From positions 160,001-224,000 of the forward strand of contig JBMNIH010000002.1 of assembly GCA_050950825.1 (NCBI GenBank): a stretch of 64,000 nt of DNA, in the 5' to 3' direction. Source of the DNA: Clostridia bacterium. GTDB taxonomy: Bacteria; Bacillota; Clostridia; JAAYHZ01. How positions within the stretch are numbered: the stretch's first letter is position 1; each line of letters opens with the position of its first letter. This document shows positions 12,752 through 33,534 of this stretch, one piece after another. A model generated the notes under the pieces. It had not been told where the DNA came from and made no database searches. It saw only the letters and a program-made list of their open reading frames with translations. The position numbers and the translations under genes were made by a program.

Positions 12752-15139
12752 CTATCGCAGAACGGCTACTTTTTTGACGCTGTCCGCAAACTCTCTGATT
12801 TGTTCCGATCCGATGTATTTTTTCACATTCTCACCGTTTACCACCACTACCGTAGGAACGGACATAATCCGGTATTTCTCCGTTAAGTCCTGCCGTTCCC
12901 GAGCGTTGACTTCTTGGATCCCTTCAATGCCTTTCAGAATGCTTTTTGCCGTCGGGCATTGAGGACAAGTGGGTGTCGTAAACAAATAGACTTGGGCTTG
13001 TCCGCGAATTTCACCGGTTTCTTTCTTTTGCTCGGCAGCCTTTGTATCTTTATCTTTTACTCCTAAAGATTTTTTATAGTCGTATTCCAGGCGGTGTTCA
13101 AATTCTTGTACCTTTCCGTCGTTCCAATTCTTCAACGGACGATAATAACCGGTGATTCTGCTGTAAACCTCCGTTTCCTTTCCGCAGGTAGGACAAGTGT
13201 ACACTTCTCCTGCTATATATCCGCAATTTTGACAGATGGCATAAGTAGGCGAAAGCGTATAATACGGCAATCTGTAATTGTCGGATATTTTCTTAACCAA
13301 ATTCATGGTGGTACGCCAGTCGGATACCTTCTCTCCTAGGAATACATGGAACACGGTTCCGCTGGTATATTGAATTTGGAACTCGTCCTGCAAATCAAGG
13401 GCTTCGAACACGTCATCCGTATATCCTACCGGCAGATGGGTGCTGTTGGTGTAGTAAGGCGTATCGCCTTTTTTGCCCGCGCAGATAATATCCGGATAGA
13501 TTTCACGGTCGTGTTTCGCCAAGCGGTACGTGGTGGATTCCGCCGGTGTGGCTTCCAAGTTAAACAGCGCACCGTATTCGTTCTGGTATTTTAACAGACG
13601 TTCTTTCATATGTTGCAGCACTTCCAGAGCGAATTTTCTCGCATTGGGTTTATCGATGGTTTCGCGGATCCACGATGCGTTCAAGCAGGCTTCATTCATA
13701 CCGATCAAACCGATGGTTGAAAAATGATTGTCAAAGGTTCCGAGATAAACCTTGGTATAGGGATACAGGTCTTTTTCCAAAAGCTTGGATATGACCTTCC
13801 TCTTTATATCCAAGGAGCGTGCCGCGATATCCATGGTACGGTCTAATGCGCTGTAGAATTGCTCTTCGTTTCCGCTTTCGTATGCGATACGAGGCAAGTT
13901 GATGGTAACGACACCGATGGAGCCGGTGCTTTCCCCCGAACCGAAATAACCTCCGGTCTTTTTACGCAATTCTCTTAAATCCAACCTCAGCCTGCAGCAC
14001 ATGCTGCGGATATCGCTAGGCTTCATATCGCTGTTCACATAATTCGAGAAGTACGGTGTCCCGTATTTGCTTGTCATTTCAAACAACAGCCTGTTGTTTT
14101 CCGTTTCCGACCAGTCGAAGTCTTTGGTAATGGAATATGTAGGAATGGGATATTGGAATCCTCTTCCGTGGGCATCCCCCTCTACCATAACTTCGATAAA
14201 CGCTTTATTAATAATATCCATTTCACGCTGGCATTCGCCGTACGTCAAATCGATTTGTTTTCCGCCGATATATACTTTTTCGTTTTTCAAATCCTCGGGG
14301 ACGGTCCAGTCCAAGGTGATGTTCGTAAAAGGAGCCTGCGATCCCCAACGGCTCGGTGTATTGACTCCAAAAACGAAGCTTTGGATACATTGCTTAACTT
14401 CCCTGTAAGGAAGATTATCCACTTTCACAAAGGGAGCCAAATAGGTATCAAAGCCGGAAAAAGCTTGGGCTCCGGCCCATTCGTTTTGCATGATACCCAA
14501 GAAATTTACCATTTGGTTGCATAAGGTGGACAAATGCTTAACGGGAGCAGAGGTGATCTTCCCCGGTACACCGCCTAAGCCTTGTTGAATTAACTGCTTT
14601 AAGGACCAACCCGCACAATACCCTGACAGCATGGACAAGTCGTGAATGTGGATTCTTGCTTGCTTGTGGGCTTGTGCAATCTCCTCGTCGTATACTTCTG
14701 ACAGCCAGTAGTTGGCGGTAATGGCGCCCGAATTGTGTAAAATCAAGCCTCCGATGGAATAATTGACGGTGGAGTTTTCTTTCACTCTCCAGTCTTCCTC
14801 TTTGACATAGCTGTCTACAAGCTTTTTATAATCAATGACCGTATTTTCAACGTTGCGGATTTTCTCTCTTTGCTTTCTATACAAGATATAGGCTTTCGCT
14901 ACGCGAGCAAAACCCGCTTGCTGCAATACGCTTTCTACGCAGTTTTGTATATCTTCTACGTGGATTTTGTTATCAAATACGTAATCTTGAAACTCTGCCG
15001 TTACCCTTAGCGCCAACAACTCCAATACGTCGTCACTCCACGCCGTACCCGTGGCTATAAAGGCCTTTTTCATCGCTTCGGAAATTCTTTTGATGTCGAA
15101 TGCTGCCGGTGATCCGTCTCTTTTTACTACCGTAATCAT
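12752..15139 (-). CDS. nrdD: Anaerobic (class III) ribonucleoside-triphosphate reductase with N-terminal ATP cone and C-terminal redoxin-like domain
   Basis: VVKRDG ATP cone, GYCAG, SMCCRL, CQNC/CPTC Zn site, glycyl-radical YSRITGYY, then TCPQCP...MSVPTVV; start ATG 15139 after GGAGGAG. Confidence 0.92.
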   Translation of the reverse strand: MITVVKRDGSPAAFDIKRISEAMKKAFIATGTAWSDDVLELLALRVTAEFQDYVFDNKIHVEDIQNCVESVLQQAGFARVAKAYILYRKQREKIRNVENTVIDYKKLVDSYVKEEDWRVKENSTVNYSIGGLILHNSGAITANYWLSEVYDEEIAQAHKQARIHIHDLSMLSGYCAGWSLKQLIQQGLGGVPGKITSAPVKHLSTLCNQMVNFLGIMQNEWAGAQAFSGFDTYLAPFVKVDNLPYREVKQCIQSFVFGVNTPSRWGSQAPFTNITLDWTVPEDLKNEKVYIGGKQIDLTYGECQREMDIINKAFIEVMVEGDAHGRGFQYPIPTYSITKDFDWSETENNRLLFEMTSKYGTPYFSNYVNSDMKPSDIRSMCCRLRLDLRELRKKTGGYFGSGESTGSIGVVTINLPRIAYESGNEEQFYSALDRTMDIAARSLDIKRKVISKLLEKDLYPYTKVYLGTFDNHFSTIGLIGMNEACLNASWIRETIDKPNARKFALEVLQHMKERLLKYQNEYGALFNLEATPAESTTYRLAKHDREIYPDIICAGKKGDTPYYTNSTHLPVGYTDDVFEALDLQDEFQIQYTSGTVFHVFLGEKVSDWRTTMNLVKKISDNYRLPYYTLSPTYAICQNCGYIAGEVYTCPTCGKETEVYSRITGYYRPLKNWNDGKVQEFEHRLEYDYKKSLGVKDKDTKAAEQKKETGEIRGQAQVYLFTTPTCPQCPTAKSILKGIEGIQEVNARERQDLTEKYRIMSVPTVVVVNGENVKKYIGSEQIREFADSVKKVAVLR

Positions 15140-15179
15140 ATGCTCCTCCATTACTATATATGTGATGTATGCCCATTTT

Positions 15180-15227
15180 ATACTATATATTGTGCCAAGT
15201 CAACACAATTCACACTACATTTTGTAC
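15180..15227 (-). promoter_or_regulatory. Tandem NrdR boxes upstream of nrdD
   Basis: ATACTATATATTGTGC (15180-15195) and ACACTACATTTTGTAC (15212-15227), 32 bp apart, resemble acaCwAtATaTwGtgt. Confidence 0.8.
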
Positions 15228-15334
15228 ATTTTTTGTAGCGTTCAATCTTTTTTTTACGATTACCAACTTAACCCCTAATTTTGATGATAACAATTATTAC
15301 CGAAGAATTCAACCGCGAAAAGAGTTAGGGTTTG

Positions 15335-15358
15335 TGATATAATCCGTAAATAGGAGGA
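15335..15358 (+). promoter_or_regulatory. Extended -10 promoter and RBS pointing into the IS110 (probably belongs to the 17342 gene)
   Basis: TGaTATAAT (15335-15343) and TAGGAGGA (15351-15358) with no substantial ORF behind them. Confidence 0.5.
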
Positions 15359-15583
15359 AATTATCACCTTGGTCCAAATAAATTGAAATAAATCAGTCAT
15401 TTACTAATTAAGAACCAGCTAATTAAAGTCAAGAGTTTATAATAAAAATTTTGAGAAATTTTTTTAGGCTCCTGACGTTAATGAAACGCATGACAACAAG
15501 ACCACCTAGGTGAGGTAGACATAAAATAGCTGGTCTAAAATAGCAAGTTGCTCTTTGAAAACTGAACATCAAGTACAGTACTA

Positions 15584-16873
15584 TCAAGCTGCTGTATGCT
15601 TTGCTGCAAGCATTTGAGCGTGTTCCTGGGGGCTGCGTAACTGGTAAGGTTTCCTATCCCTTAGAACAGCAAAGATGATACAAACAAGCTTGCGCATAAC
15701 AGCTCCCAAAGCTACTTTCTTAGGCTTACTCTGGCATTTTTGTTGGTAGAACTCCAGCAGCACAGGGTTGCAAGCTGTCTTATCCCGCTTGGTACGGATA
15801 TTAGCAAGAGCAATTGTGAAAAGCACCCTGCGAAGCAGCCTTGAACCTCTCTTAGACATCTTGTTCCGTGTGCCGGTAAACTCTCCGGACTGCATGACAG
15901 AGGGGTCAACGCCGAAATAAGCAACCAGCTTGCCTGGCTTTTTAAAGGCTGAAAAGTCTCCAATCTCCGCAAGAATAGTAGCAGCAGAGAGAAGGCCTAT
16001 ACCTGGCAGGCTCTGCAAAAGTTCAAGCGTCAATGCCAGCATGGGCATATCCTTCGCCATATCTTCAGCAATCAGTAGACGAATGGACTTAAGGACTTTC
16101 TCCAGGCTTTCTTCCAAGGTTTTGATCATGGAGATATATACGCCCAGCATAATAACATTTGAGGCATTATGAATGCTCAGAGGTGCAAAATCTCTGGCCT
16201 TGGAGACCAGAAGCTCATACTTGGCAGTTGACCATTTGAGGCTTTTGCGGGATTTCTTCTGAATCAGTGAAATCAGCTTGTTCCTGTCAGCCTTAAGAAT
16301 ATGGGCAGGAGTAGGATACTCCTCCAGGACAGCCATAGCAGCCTTTGAAAATATATTGGAGAAGACATCCTTGAAGTTAAGCATGAGTTGGTCAACAATA
16401 CCGGTAAGCCTGTTTTTGTAGGCGGTAAGCTCATCACTCAGTTTGTAGTACTGGCGACATAGGCTCCTTAGGCACTCAATATCCTCATTGGGGATGTTGG
16501 TTGACTTAAGTTCCTGAAATCTATAGAGTAGGGCAATTTTCCGGGCATCCACTTTATCATTTTTCACTTTTCTGATTCCAATATTTTTGATAGAATCAGT
16601 TTGGATGGGGTTTGTTACCGAAACCTCAAATCCAGCTTTACAAAGTGAATGGAAAAGGATTTTGTGATAGTGCCCGGTGGATTCCATGACTATGAAAGGC
16701 CTTGAAGCAAAATCTTTTTCCGTTTTATTAAGCAATTCAACGGCTCTTTCAACGTCGGTATTGGAATCATGGTGAATCTTCATGCGGGCAACCACTTCAT
16801 TGGTAGGAGAAAGAATCGCCATTTCACTGAAGAACTTACCCACATCAATTCCTGCAATGGGTCTGAAATTCAT
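15584..16873 (-). CDS. IS110-family transposase (DEDD/RuvC-fold recombinase)
   Basis: GIDVGK, MESTG and KNDKVDA acidic residues; SLPGIG..AATILAEIGD; C-terminal-domain GVDPSVMQSG serine; RBS AAGGAGG. Confidence 0.95.
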   Translation of the reverse strand: MNFRPIAGIDVGKFFSEMAILSPTNEVVARMKIHHDSNTDVERAVELLNKTEKDFASRPFIVMESTGHYHKILFHSLCKAGFEVSVTNPIQTDSIKNIGIRKVKNDKVDARKIALLYRFQELKSTNIPNEDIECLRSLCRQYYKLSDELTAYKNRLTGIVDQLMLNFKDVFSNIFSKAAMAVLEEYPTPAHILKADRNKLISLIQKKSRKSLKWSTAKYELLVSKARDFAPLSIHNASNVIMLGVYISMIKTLEESLEKVLKSIRLLIAEDMAKDMPMLALTLELLQSLPGIGLLSAATILAEIGDFSAFKKPGKLVAYFGVDPSVMQSGEFTGTRNKMSKRGSRLLRRVLFTIALANIRTKRDKTACNPVLLEFYQQKCQSKPKKVALGAVMRKLVCIIFAVLRDRKPYQLRSPQEHAQMLAAKHTAA

Positions 16874-16889
16874 TAAAATGCCTCCTTTT

Positions 16890-17092
16890 TAAGATTAATG
16901 GACTTAAAAGCCTCCATTCCTTCCCATGTAAGCAAACAACCTTGCATGTGACACGAGGAACCAGCCAAAGAGCTGGCCTCAACCAGCCAAATCATGTAGA
17001 CTTACCGGAATGGATAAATACTCTTTCTTACGGGTAATCGGCCCGCTAAGGTCCGTCCCAGGAGGTGAAACACTCACCTTCCAAGTCCGGAA
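16890..17092 (-). ncRNA. Predicted IS110 bridge RNA (boundaries approximate)
   Basis: Several hairpins; four short segments match the target left, target right, donor left and donor right sequences in IS621-like order; TATAAT on minus strand at 17101-17096. Confidence 0.7.
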
Positions 17093-17341
17093 GATATTAT
17101 ACATGATTGTCAAGGTTCAGGCCAACAGTTGCTGGCAAAATGGCTAAGATGTGAAGCCGGATGATGTGCTTGATGTTTAGAAAAGAATGAAGTTTGAAGT
17201 GTTATGTTAACAATGAATTTTAATGGGTCGAACAGTGGCTTCGGTCACTGATTTAATACAATATTAATTGTACAAGGCGGTGAAGAGTCCGGTTTTGTAA
17301 AGTCGATTTATCACAAAATCTGCAAAAACCGGGCGAATGGA

Positions 17342-18406
17342 ATGAAGACCAAAACAAAAAGCGGAAATGTCGGTTATGCCGTTGTGGGATTAGGCCGAGG
17401 AATGGATCATGTAAGGTGTGCGAGCAATTCAAAAAATTGCGATCTGCTTGCGGTTTGTGACATCAATCCGGAAACCTTTAAAAAGCTTGAAGGCAAGTAC
17501 GAAGCGGATACCTATACGGATATTGATGAAATGCTAAAAAGAGACGACATCGATATCGTCAGTATATGTACCCCCAGCGGTACCCATGCCGAATTGGCCA
17601 TGAAGGTTGCGGAAGCCGGAAAACATGCCATGCTGGAAAAACCTTTTGATATAACCTTGGATAAAATCGATGCTACGGTGAAGGCTTTTGCCGACAAAGG
17701 CTTAAAGCTCGGCTTAATTTTCCAAAACAGATTCGCTCCGGCTAATCGTAAGGCGAAGCAATTAATCGACGAAGGCGTTTTAGGAGACTTAATACTGGGA
17801 GTCGTTCAAGTAAAATGGTATCGAACCCAAGGTTACTATGACGCAAACGGCGGATGGCGTGGTACATGGGCAATGGACGGCGGCGGTTCTCTTATGAACC
17901 AAGGAATCCATACCGTCGATTTGTTCCAATGGATGATGGGACCCGTAAAATCCGTTTTTGCATATACCGATGTGGTAGCCCATAATATCGAAGCCGAAGA
18001 TATTACCGCTGCCGTATTGAAAATGAAAAACGGAGCGAAAGGAATCATTATCACTTCGACGGCTACATATCCCGGTTTCGGAACCACGTTGGACATTCAC
18101 GGCGTCAACGGCGGAATCTGCATGAAAAACAACGACATCATGGAGATTTCGTACAAGGGCGCTACCCAAGAAGAATTGGACAACATAATGAAAATTTACG
18201 GTCCCAACAAAGACATCGAATTTGCCGTTGCTTCCGATCCTTCGGTTATCAACAGGGATACCACCCACGTTCAAATACAAGATATGATTGATGCGGTTCT
18301 GGAAGATCGTCCTCCCGTGATTGAAGGTGCCGAAGGACGTCGTTCCGTAGAAATCATCAACGCCATATACGAATCCGCAAAAACAGGAAAGGAAATTTCC
18401 CTATAG
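17342..18406 (+). CDS. Gfo/Idh/MocA family oxidoreductase
   Basis: YAVVGLG, ICTPSGTH, EKP, WRGTW..DGGGSLMNQGIH.VD motifs. Confidence 0.92.
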   Translation: MKTKTKSGNVGYAVVGLGRGMDHVRCASNSKNCDLLAVCDINPETFKKLEGKYEADTYTDIDEMLKRDDIDIVSICTPSGTHAELAMKVAEAGKHAMLEKPFDITLDKIDATVKAFADKGLKLGLIFQNRFAPANRKAKQLIDEGVLGDLILGVVQVKWYRTQGYYDANGGWRGTWAMDGGGSLMNQGIHTVDLFQWMMGPVKSVFAYTDVVAHNIEAEDITAAVLKMKNGAKGIIITSTATYPGFGTTLDIHGVNGGICMKNNDIMEISYKGATQEELDNIMKIYGPNKDIEFAVASDPSVINRDTTHVQIQDMIDAVLEDRPPVIEGAEGRRSVEIINAIYESAKTGKEISL

Positions 18407-31432: not shown

Positions 31433-32410
31433 TTACTTCGTATTTCTATCGATGGTCACATTTCCGGAGGTTGTCTTGATTTTAACGGCAGGACCGCCTC
31501 CGTTTATTTTTCCCTGCAGCAAGCCTTTATCGCTTTTACCGGAGCCTACTTCAAAGCTTTCTACGGTGATTTCTCCCGATACGGTTTCCACGTTCAAATT
31601 GAAGGCGGCGGATGCATTAAGAAGCAATATAATGTCGCCGGACACTCCGGTTAAGGAGACGTTATCTTTTAAGCTCTTCAATCGTATATCCATGTATCCC
31701 GAAACCGTTTCCGCAACAACACCGCCGATGTTCCCGTCAACGGATATGGTTCCCGAAACGGAAGCGGATTGAATATTCTTCGCTTCTACATTATTGGCAA
31801 AAACATTTCCGGAGGTGGACCTGGCATCGATGGTTCCTAAGCAAATAATATCCGACAATTCAATGTTTCCCGAAACGGATTGTGCTACAAGGTTGCCGCT
31901 TTCCAGATTTTCCCCATGAATACTTCCCGAAACCGTATTAATCAATATGTCGGTGTTATTCCAATCGGCAATTTCTACGTTGCCCGAATACGTATCCACG
32001 GAAAACCCGCCTTTGTAATGCCCGGGGATATATAAATCCAGCTTCAGCGAGCCCTTCGGCAGGTCAACCTTATTTTTTTTGTATTTCACCTCGATAAAAT
32101 AGTTGTTTTTTCGTTTTTTCAACTGCAGCTTAGGTACATTATCGTAATTTCCCGGTACTTGGCCGTACAAAACCGCTTTCAATCTTTCTTCTTCTCCGAT
32201 AATGACGCGAATATCTTCGATAACACCTTTGAATTCCAGCCGGTCCGCACTCTTAAAATCATCCGAGACCTCTTCGTAATAGTCGATCATGCGGTCTAAT
32301 ATGATGTCCGCCTTTTTCCCGGTACTATTTGCAAAAAGAATTCCCAAAGCAATCAATAATACGGCACCGGCAAAAATTCCCCCTATTATCATGAGTTTGC
32401 GTTTATCCAT
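31433..32410 (-). CDS. DUF4097-type beta-strand-repeat membrane-anchored protein
   Basis: N-terminal TM helix; repeated (T/S)xSGx(I/V) units; C-terminal IKTTSGNVTI. Confidence 0.85.
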   Translation of the reverse strand: MDKRKLMIIGGIFAGAVLLIALGILFANSTGKKADIILDRMIDYYEEVSDDFKSADRLEFKGVIEDIRVIIGEEERLKAVLYGQVPGNYDNVPKLQLKKRKNNYFIEVKYKKNKVDLPKGSLKLDLYIPGHYKGGFSVDTYSGNVEIADWNNTDILINTVSGSIHGENLESGNLVAQSVSGNIELSDIICLGTIDARSTSGNVFANNVEAKNIQSASVSGTISVDGNIGGVVAETVSGYMDIRLKSLKDNVSLTGVSGDIILLLNASAAFNLNVETVSGEITVESFEVGSGKSDKGLLQGKINGGGPAVKIKTTSGNVTIDRNTK

Positions 32411-32420
32411 GATTTACCAC

Positions 32421-33426
32421 GCCCGCATGAAGATCCGCCATGATTCCACTACTGACGTTGAAAGAGCTGTTGAATTACTGAAAAAAACGGAAAAGGACTT
32501 TGGTTCTAGGCCTTTCGTCGTCATGGAATCTACCGGGCACTATCACAAAATCCTTTTCCATTCACTTTGTAAAGCTGGATTGGAGGTCTCCATCATAAAC
32601 CCCATCCAAACTGATTCTATCAAAAATATTGGAATCAGGAAAGTGAAAAATGATAAAGTTGATGCCCGGAAAATTGCTCTGCTATACAGATTTCAGGAGC
32701 TTAAAACTACTAATATCCCCAATGAGGATATTGAATGTCTGCGAAGCCTTTGCCGCCAGTACTATAAGCTGAATGATGAGCTTACTGCATACAAAAACAG
32801 ACTTACAGGCATTGTCGACCAGCTTATGCTCAACTTTAAGGACGTCTTCTCCAATATATTCTCAAAGGCTGCTATTGCTGTATTGGAGGAATATCCTACA
32901 CCTGCTGCTATTCTTAAAGCTAATAGGAACAAACTGATTTCACTTATTCAAAAGAATTCCCGCAAGAGCCTTAAGTGGTCAACTGCAAAGTATGAGCTTC
33001 TCGTCTCCAAGGCCAGAGAGTTTGCGCCTTTGAGCGTTCATAATTCTTCAAACATTGCCATGCTGGGTGTCTACATATCCATGATCAGAACTCTGGAAGA
33101 TAACTTGGCGAAGGTCCTAAAAGCCATTCATCTATTGATTGCTGAAGATATGGCTAAGGACATGCCTATGCTGGCATTGACGCTTGAGCTTTTGCAAAGC
33201 CTGCCAGGTATTGGCCTTCTTACTGCTGCCACCATTTTAGCAGAGATCGGCGATTTTTCTGCCTTCTCTAAGCCGGGAAAACTGGTTGCTTACTTTGGCA
33301 TTGACCCCTCTGTGATGCAATCTGGGGAGTTTACCGGCACGCGGAATAAAATGTCCAAGAGAGGTTCCAGGCTACTTCGCAGGGTTCTTTTTACAACTGC
33401 TCTTGCCAATATTCGAACTAAGAGGA
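32421..33426 (+). pseudogene. Internal fragment of a second, diverged IS110 transposase (both ends missing)
   Basis: Protein closely similar to the 15584-16873 transposase from ARMKI to NIRTKR; lacks the GID motif, the C-terminus and both non-coding ends. Confidence 0.9.
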
Positions 33427-33534
33427 CTTTTTCACATTATTTTCCTTTGTATAAATATAACCGGTTTTCGGTATTCTAATATTCCAAAGTCGAAATTTCC
33501 TATAATTCTATCGATTCATCCTTTTCTTTTCAAT

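Follow-up and report, generated by a model that had tools for sequence, protein, structure and literature searches.

The window analysed here is the whole 64,000-nt stretch of a Clostridia bacterium contig (JBMNIH010000002.1, positions 160,001 to 224,000), and all positions below are counted from its first letter. We investigated an element on the minus strand of the window at 15414-17274. Its body comprises 1861 nt, from TGTACAATT to TTAGCTGGT, and the BLAST alignments of its relatives stop at these bases. The breakpoints of independent run contigs of other copies are exactly 15414 and 17277. The similarity between copies stops between CT and TGTACAATT or AGTACAAT on the left and between TTAGCTGGT and CT on the right. 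The locus is very probably an insertion sequence of the IS110 family, and of the IS110 group within it, that is moved by bridge-RNA-guided recombination and whose target guide nearly copies the 3′ tail of 16S rRNA. The left copy of the CT core (17275-17276, minus strand) precedes TGTACAAT/AGTACAAT in all the relatives found, the search pattern itself having required C[TC]. Beyond it lies the left target TTCACCGC (17277-17284, minus strand), which reads AGGCGGTGAA on the plus strand and resembles a Shine-Dalgarno (SD) sequence. At the other end, TCTTA (15409-15413, minus strand) is what remains of the right target TTCTTA when the empty and the occupied site are compared; this junction lacks the CT core of the canonical form and one T. 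A previous sequence-only reading of this DNA had set the left end and its CT at 17275-17276 correctly; the right end, which it had put at 15410-15412, is at 15414, where the core is missing.

The recombinase gene (15584-16873, minus strand) encodes 429 amino acids, with an N-terminal DEDD RuvC-like domain and a C-terminal Tnp domain that contains the catalytic serine, which is the two-domain composition of the IS110 family. In Pfam, PF01548 (DEDD_Tnp_IS110) matched residues 7-164 (E = 4.7 × 10−32) and PF02371 (Transposase_20) matched residues 284-362 (E = 9.6 × 10−25), both above the cut-offs. Sequence similarity was found to the structures of ISCro4 (9t56, E = 2 × 10−19) and IS621 (8wt6, E = 3.8 × 10−19), and the motifs GIDVGK (residue 8), MESTG (63), KNDKVDA (104) and MSKRGS (339) align with the same motifs of ISCro4. 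Judging from a passage of the IS621 paper, these motifs may be equated with D11/E60/D102/D105/S241 of IS621.

About 190 nt upstream of the open reading frame (ORF) are conserved among relatives down to about 54% protein identity (L051, L053). Based on this conserved block and its consensus structure, a putative bridge RNA was placed at 16895-17090 (minus strand, ends approximate). The consensus fold and the pair count were calculated from an alignment (A1) of 30 diverse sequences. The RNA has 30 pairs in five helices, in which 97.1% of the cells are paired; sliding the partners lowers this to 35-48.5%. Compensatory cells numbered 30, against 9.5 in shuffles (0/500 as high), and most of them belong to the inner stem-loop of the first loop. 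This target-loop stem-loop (17031-17059, minus strand) has four pairs with compensatory changes, seen in 5, 7, 10 and 4 sequences. The inner hairpin of the donor loop, GAGG-CCAGC...GCUGG-CCUC (16955-16980, minus strand), is paired in 99.6% of the cells and has two pairs with compensatory changes. The sequence-only reading had proposed covariation analysis and folding of this region, and both uncovered a conserved structure; the fold of the single window sequence (z = −1.72) is uninformative alone. We also considered an outer stem CCGGA/UCCGG for the target loop, which competes with the well-supported CCAUUCC/GGAAUGG stem and was left uncounted.

The first half of the RNA consists of a 10-nt segment, GGGAC, a stem-loop, UUACCCG and an 8-nt segment. 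In the second half, the CCAUUCC and GUAAGU stems enclose UUGGCUGGUU-GAGG-hairpin-CCUC-GUGUCACA-UGCAAG. The gene is thus preceded by a structured RNA with two guide-bearing loops, and such an upstream position distinguishes the IS110 group from IS1111. A sigma-70-like promoter, TTGGCC-18-TATAAT (17096-17125, minus strand), may serve this RNA; it matches at 10 of 12 positions and its block is conserved in the alignment of the relatives, while a promoter scan alone is weak evidence (4 such sites vs 3.4 expected). At the right end of the element, TTGACT (15427-15432, minus strand) reads as a −35 box that is 17 nt from TACAAT (17272-17267) in the canonical circle junction, so that a circle would carry the junction promoter TTGACT-17-TACAAT.

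Four guides were located on the minus strand of the RNA region: the left target guide (LTG) UUCACCUCCU at 17069-17060, the right target guide (RTG) UAAGAAAG at 17030-17023, the left donor guide (LDG) UUGGCUGGUU at 16990-16981 and the right donor guide (RDG) UGCAAG at 16946-16941, which pairs with CT-TGTA through one G-T wobble. The sequence-only reading had named four segments in this LTG-RTG-LDG-RDG order. All four are where it put them, they flank covarying stem-loops, and they vary together with the flanks and ends of the relatives. Three of its guides can be kept as proposed; the RTG is not UAAG (17030-17027) pairing with CTTA but the whole UAAGAAAG, which pairs with CT-TTCTTA at 8/8 positions. 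The flank sequences TTCACCGCCT (17284-17275) and TTAGCTGGTT (15422-15413) that it had reported are also present. Matches with at most one mismatch occur 8 times in the window for TTCACCTCCT (3.2 expected) and 3 times for TTGGCTGGTT (3.5 expected). Such matches are common in general, but one placed exactly at each end of the element is no chance event. Between the two occurrences of TTGGCTGGTT, that reading had taken the correct one as donor guide; the second (TTGGCTGG, 16968-16959) is a hairpin strand and not a guide, as its compensatory changes show. Its donor left arm TTAGCTGGTT-CT has to be replaced, because every relative with a right end found has TTAGCTGGT-CT; the window has a junction that is 3 nt short, not a longer donor arm.

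Contigs in all four public runs (three DNA libraries and one RNA library) join 15413 to 17274 and skip 1860 nt. It follows that the empty site, in element orientation, is TTCACCGC-CT-TTCTTA-ATTAG, and not cTTCACCGC-CT-TAatt as the sequence-only reading had it. This form had been predicted from the register of the family, and it agrees with the LTG at 9/10 and with the RTG at 8/8 positions. In the host genome, the window site is the best match to the guides (15/16 positions), and no other site has 0 or 1 mismatch. A canonical insertion adds 1863 nt (body plus one core), against 1860 in the window. The relatives have GCTGGT-CT-RT at the right junction; in the window we found GCTGGT-TCTTA where the canonical form would be GCTGGT-CT-TTCTTA, which is 3 nt shorter. 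CT is therefore found at both junctions in the relatives (partly imposed by the search patterns) and only at the left junction in the window copy. A later 3-nt deletion, imprecise resolution and an assembly error would each account for this, and we cannot tell them apart. If the loss of the right-end core is real, the window copy may be immobile and no longer excise. The empty site was also sought in 41 related genomes, which yielded only orthologues of the neighbouring gene at 74-75% identity (G001, G002) with intergenic DNA that could not be aligned.

We collected 79 loci from genome contigs (from the best 80 of 105 relatives) and 80 more from metagenome contigs (of 210 found). Several genomes hold 5-7 copies of the element each. 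Among the 160 sequences (159 loci and the window), 42 had no match to the target-loop pattern and were left out; these are mostly distant or truncated relatives, and fourteen distant ones were inspected by eye only. L150 was dropped from the start-codon, guide-flank and 16S-flank counts, because its left end was false, an internal promoter that matched the pattern. Three pairs of contigs from metagenome-assembled genomes (MAGs) or metagenomes (L093/L094, L112/L113 and L096/L052) share one element flank and not the other, which means that assemblies can join the flanks of different insertion sites across a repeat. For this reason left and right junctions were analysed separately, giving 90 unique left and 89 unique right junctions. 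In the guide-flank count, the right target of the window was the empty-site version, with one T added before the bases that follow GCTGGT.

Our analysis showed that both target guides vary together with the DNA beside the element. At non-core positions the LTG agreed with its own left flank at 5.36/8 positions on average, against 4.45 for permuted pairs, and the RTG agreed with its right flank at 4.08/6 positions, against 2.66; none of 2000 permutations was as high in either case. For the LTG, L050 has GGCCGCCCCU with the flank GGCCGCCCCT (10/10), the five JBMNJR copies have AACACCUCCU with AACACCTCCT-like flanks, the five Petroclostridium X23 copies have AAUUCCUCCU with (A/C)TTCCTCCT-like flanks, and L066 has GGCUACCUCCU with GCTACCTCCT. 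The 8-nt RTG segment is the reverse complement of the core and right flank, as in UGAAAG with CT-TTCA, AAGUAUAG with CT-ATACTT, UGUCGAAG with CT-TCGAC, UAAUAGAG with CT-CTATTA and UAGUUGAG with CT-CAA. The RDG tracks the left end across the relatives (GCAAG with CT-TGTA, GCUAG with CT-AGTA). The LDG and the right end TTAGCTGGT are both nearly invariant, and this pair is uninformative for covariation. Covariation of guides with the flanks (LTG, RTG) and with an element end (RDG) is a further character of the IS110 group found here.

The guides together specify the 16-mer TTCACCTCCTTTCTTA, which agrees at 14/16 positions with the 3′ tail of the host 16S rRNA, ..GGAUCACCUCCUUUCUAAGG (located by the Rfam SSU model). 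Because the 16-mer is nearly identical to this tail, genomic sites that match it are found on the strand opposite to extended SD sequences (TAAGAAAGGAGGTGAA). Across the 90 unique insertions, the left flanks run into the core with the consensus C(74%)C(74%)T(62%)C(94%)-CT. GGAGG lies on the opposite strand of the left flank in 40 of them and only a 4-mer of GGAGG in 30 more. We then scored a site as a ribosome-binding site (RBS) if ATG, GTG or TTG was found 9-19 nt from the core and opened an ORF of 50 codons or more, or one cut off by the contig end after at least 25. This test was applied wherever a unique site had 200 nt of flank or more, which was the case for 70 sites. It was passed at 45/70 sites, and in 38 of those 45 the start codon is 12-16 nt from the core, which is the usual spacing between SD and start. 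In the same flanks, random positions passed in 2746/12200 cases (22.5%) in the same orientation and in 1040/12200 (8.5%) in the opposite one, and right flanks read outward passed in 6/69. All five Petroclostridium X23 copies and all five JBMNJR copies pass. Distant relatives with 32-46% identity (Thermoanaerobacterium, Catonella, Lacrimispora, uncultured Bacilli) also adjoin a reverse-complement start codon, as judged by eye.

The target gene is always directed away from the left end of the element, with AG-GAGG... intact. The SD stays on the gene side, as the sequence-only reading had anticipated, because the left target and the core remain joined to the gene. That reading had further expected the flanks of homologues to show an SD motif just upstream of start codons in a fixed orientation, and this motif appeared (70/90 flanks for the SD; 45/70 sites for the RBS test). 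Insertion at RBS motifs was therefore foreseen rightly; the specified site is the longer, extended SD TAAGAAAGGAGGTGAA rather than TAAGGAGGTGA.

Several observations weigh against this interpretation. Even an SD 4-mer is absent from 20/90 left flanks, and no qualifying ORF was found at 25/70 sites of the relatives. The site of the window copy itself is only SD-like: AAAGGCGGTGAA on the plus strand is followed by the ATG (17342) only after 66 nt and is no canonical RBS. The mean agreement between guide and target is imperfect (about 5.4/8 and 4.1/6); either mismatches are tolerated or the flanks have drifted. The relatives were found with search patterns that demanded C[TC] as the core and [TA]GTA[CT]AAT as the left end, and sampling was thus confined to junctions of this type. 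The insertions stem from MAGs and metagenome contigs, some of which join left and right flanks of different sites. As for the RNA, the outer stem of the target loop was not resolved in the consensus fold. A scan of 15000-17800 with Rfam 15 at E up to 10 gave chance-level matches only and no bridge-RNA match, and Rfam 15 may hold no such model. All the public runs are available as contigs, and the depth profile is alike in DNA and RNA libraries: in DNA runs, too, the depth rises to a peak over the conserved RNA block. The contigs of the RNA-library run X15 span both the whole element and the empty site, which is neutral on expression. The transcription of the bridge RNA and its start and end positions are thus predictions from the sequence. 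No circle-junction joint was seen among the run contigs, which prove nothing either way.

The SD-like flanks could also be caused by selection: the element might insert broadly, and only non-disruptive intergenic insertions just upstream of an SD would persist. True RBSs are commoner at the observed sites (45/70) than at guide-like sites of the host (24/58, with 3 mismatches and scored by start codon and ORF), which fits some filtering after insertion, and the imperfect agreement between guides and targets points the same way. However, the flank follows a changed guide, including guides for non-SD sequences (L050, 10/10; L043; L142; L053), permuted guide-flank pairs never reach the observed agreement (0/2000), and the window site is the genome-wide best match to its own guides, with 1 mismatch in 16. 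We consider survival bias very unlikely as the full explanation. Another explanation makes UUCACCUCCU a purely structural segment and no guide; it would pair with GGAAGGUGA further upstream and so form one strand (the 3′ one) of a 5′ hairpin. The two segments are indeed paired in the minimum-free-energy fold calculated for the window RNA, and the upstream GGAGG and the CCUCC of the guide are both conserved. However, this helix shows no covariation (67.4% of cells paired vs 67.0% in shuffles, 229/500 as high), slid registers are equally good, and the segment covaries with the DNA flank instead. A purely structural role is extremely unlikely; GGAAGGUGA may still mask the LTG transiently in the free RNA.

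The near-identity of the target guide to the 16S tail also raises the question of whether the 16S rRNA gene is the true target and the RBS insertions are look-alikes. The host genome has eight sites with 2 mismatches in 16 to the guides, and five of these next-best matches are 16S 3′ ends (G000 C1:58949, C10:131245, C2:75067, C4:252799 and C7:82720). Against this, 0/90 unique left flanks correspond to 16S ends, compared with RBSs at 45/70 sites, and we give this explanation hardly any probability; MAGs and metagenome contigs often lack rRNA operons or collapse them, so that insertions into 16S genes would be under-sampled there. The unoccupied 16S 3′ ends may reflect counter-selection or an assembly gap.

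We prefer the interpretation that the element is guided to SD sequences by its bridge RNA, and the following course of events can be proposed. Transcription at the left end, ahead of the recombinase gene, would yield an RNA of about 190 nt. In this RNA, the donor-binding loop (UUGGCUGGUU ... UGCAAG) would recognise the joined element ends TTAGCTGGT-CT-TGTACA, and the target-binding loop (UUCACCUCCU ... UAAGAAAG) would recognise TTCACCTC-CT-TTCTTA. Recombination at the CT core would then insert the element directly in front of the SD, always the same way round, so that the recombinase gene and the target gene diverge. The SD and the start codon would stay together, and the gene would be severed from its former upstream region. 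The protein family, the conserved structure, the covariation of guides with target and donor, the empty site and the RBS location in the relatives are observations; RNA production, a circle with a junction promoter and an effect on the neighbouring gene are inferred from them.

Two side observations concern the guide as a possible target. In L115:1-130, the insertion point of one copy falls exactly behind the bases that encode the LTG of a sibling element (left flank ...CCGGACTTGGAAGGTGTGTGTTTCACCTCCT); this may be an assembly chimera. Taken as it stands, the insertion means that the guide's own DNA is a target look-alike, in its left half only. The SD of the recombinase gene itself (16874-16893, minus strand, and the same place in the relatives) is mostly GGAGGC in close relatives and not GGAGGTG. 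On the opposite strand, this sequence fits the left guide of the element less well, which may reflect avoidance of self-targeting.

IS900 of Mycobacterium avium subsp. paratuberculosis, also of the IS110 family, inserts between the SD and the start codon, and its long antisense ORF (hed) borrows host signals. Our element sits upstream of the SD instead and leaves SD and ATG intact, its longest antisense ORF has 80 amino acids, and its hosts are Clostridia and other Firmicutes. The two elements share orientation-specific insertion at translation initiation signals. According to passages of PMC8141618, the target motif of IS900 is CATGNNNNNNTCTCCTT, the reverse complement of SD plus ATG, and RBS targeting by IS900 has been in print since 1997, when Doran et al. 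published a paper entitled 'IS900 targets translation initiation signals...'. The specificity, of which the sequence-only reading could not say whether it had been reported, was therefore known as a target preference of IS900; its guide-level basis was not found in the literature. We found nothing that links RBS targeting by IS110 elements to an anti-SD-like bridge-RNA guide, or that describes the Firmicutes clade. The main text of Durrant et al. (2024) contains neither Shine nor RBS, and its Supplementary Data 2 (natural target motifs per guide) may already hold CCTCCT-type motifs; the seekRNA paper has nothing relevant on RBS targeting. In our judgement the observation is correct and moderately novel.

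Bridge RNAs and the rules of their guides have been established, as the passages of PMC11208160 and PMC11208158 relate. Our element resembles IS621 and ISCro4 in its two protein domains (similarity E of about 10−19), its CT core and the RNA upstream of the gene, with LTG, stem-loop and RTG in the target loop and LDG, stem-loop and RDG in the donor loop. The base after each core-pairing AG also fits the IS621 'handshake' rule, as given in passages of these two papers: the RTG is followed by an A that could pair with the final T of the donor arm, and the RDG by a G that could pair with the C found before the core in 94% of the targets. However, the protein is about 100 amino acids longer (429 vs 328-341), and the LDG, unlike those of IS621 and ISCro4, fails to match the second core base. 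Passages of PMC11208160 give further differences from IS621: four non-core bases of the RTG were analysed there, against 8 nt including the core here, and its natural targets are repetitive extragenic palindromic (REP) elements rather than the SD region. CazIS110-1 of Caloranaerobacter azorensis is likewise a bridge-RNA IS110 element from a clostridial host, a thermophile, and is biochemically active (10.1101/2025.10.25.684509, in passages of the preprint); those passages mention neither RBS nor Shine-Dalgarno. Our relative from Caloranaerobacter azorensis (L073, 43% identity), which we do not equate with CazIS110-1, has ..CUCCCCCU in its LTG region.

These results offer a mechanistic reading of an old observation, the search for translation start signals by some IS110-family elements: the guide RNA imitates the anti-SD tail of 16S rRNA. 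We lean, with some reserve, towards a broader view. A whole Firmicutes branch of bridge recombinases, spanning protein identities of 100% to about 32%, would have fixed its target loop on a copy of the 16S 3′ tail and thus use a sequence that every host must keep, in complementary form, before most genes. Thousands of intergenic sites would thereby be on offer, whatever the host. Owing to the fixed orientation, host transcription would run antisense through the recombinase gene into the SD-bearing gene. There would also be a standing conflict with the near-perfect 3′ ends of rrs, which were never seen occupied here, and this raises the question of how the 3′ end of the 16S gene itself is kept free of insertions, be it by the hosts or by the elements. 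A natural recombinase that lands before genes without breaking them, in a known orientation and in almost any bacterium, is relevant to operon polarity, to the spread of elements across hosts and possibly to promoter-trap or gene-insulation tools.

The host genome contains one full copy of the element. A truncated relic of the same family is found in the window at 32421-33425 (plus strand), with 85% DNA identity and covering protein residues 29-366. It is without both ends and without the RNA region, and is fused into a 396-amino-acid ORF at 32289-33479. Two other IS110-type paralogue families are present in the host genome (L005-L009; G000 C9, C10, C3 and C7), with 27-29% identity to the recombinase, and one of them gave three matches of identical score.

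The site struck in the window also appears to belong to a recurrent host leader, in which AAAGG(C/T)GGUGA is separated by 2-4 nt from a hairpin, and the hairpin by 5-8 nt from a start codon that opens a long ORF. There were 10 pattern matches in the host, about 7 of them with this layout: window 17275-17345 (plus strand) and G000 C2:106785, C4:230343, C4:440937, C7:134273, C9:6151 and C10:104685. Six host leaders resembling the window target had no Rfam match at E up to 0.01. From its sequence, the leader looks like a split SD-hairpin-AUG arrangement, one of which the window insertion would have struck. The hairpin of the window leader folds modestly better than shuffled sequences (z = −1.11).

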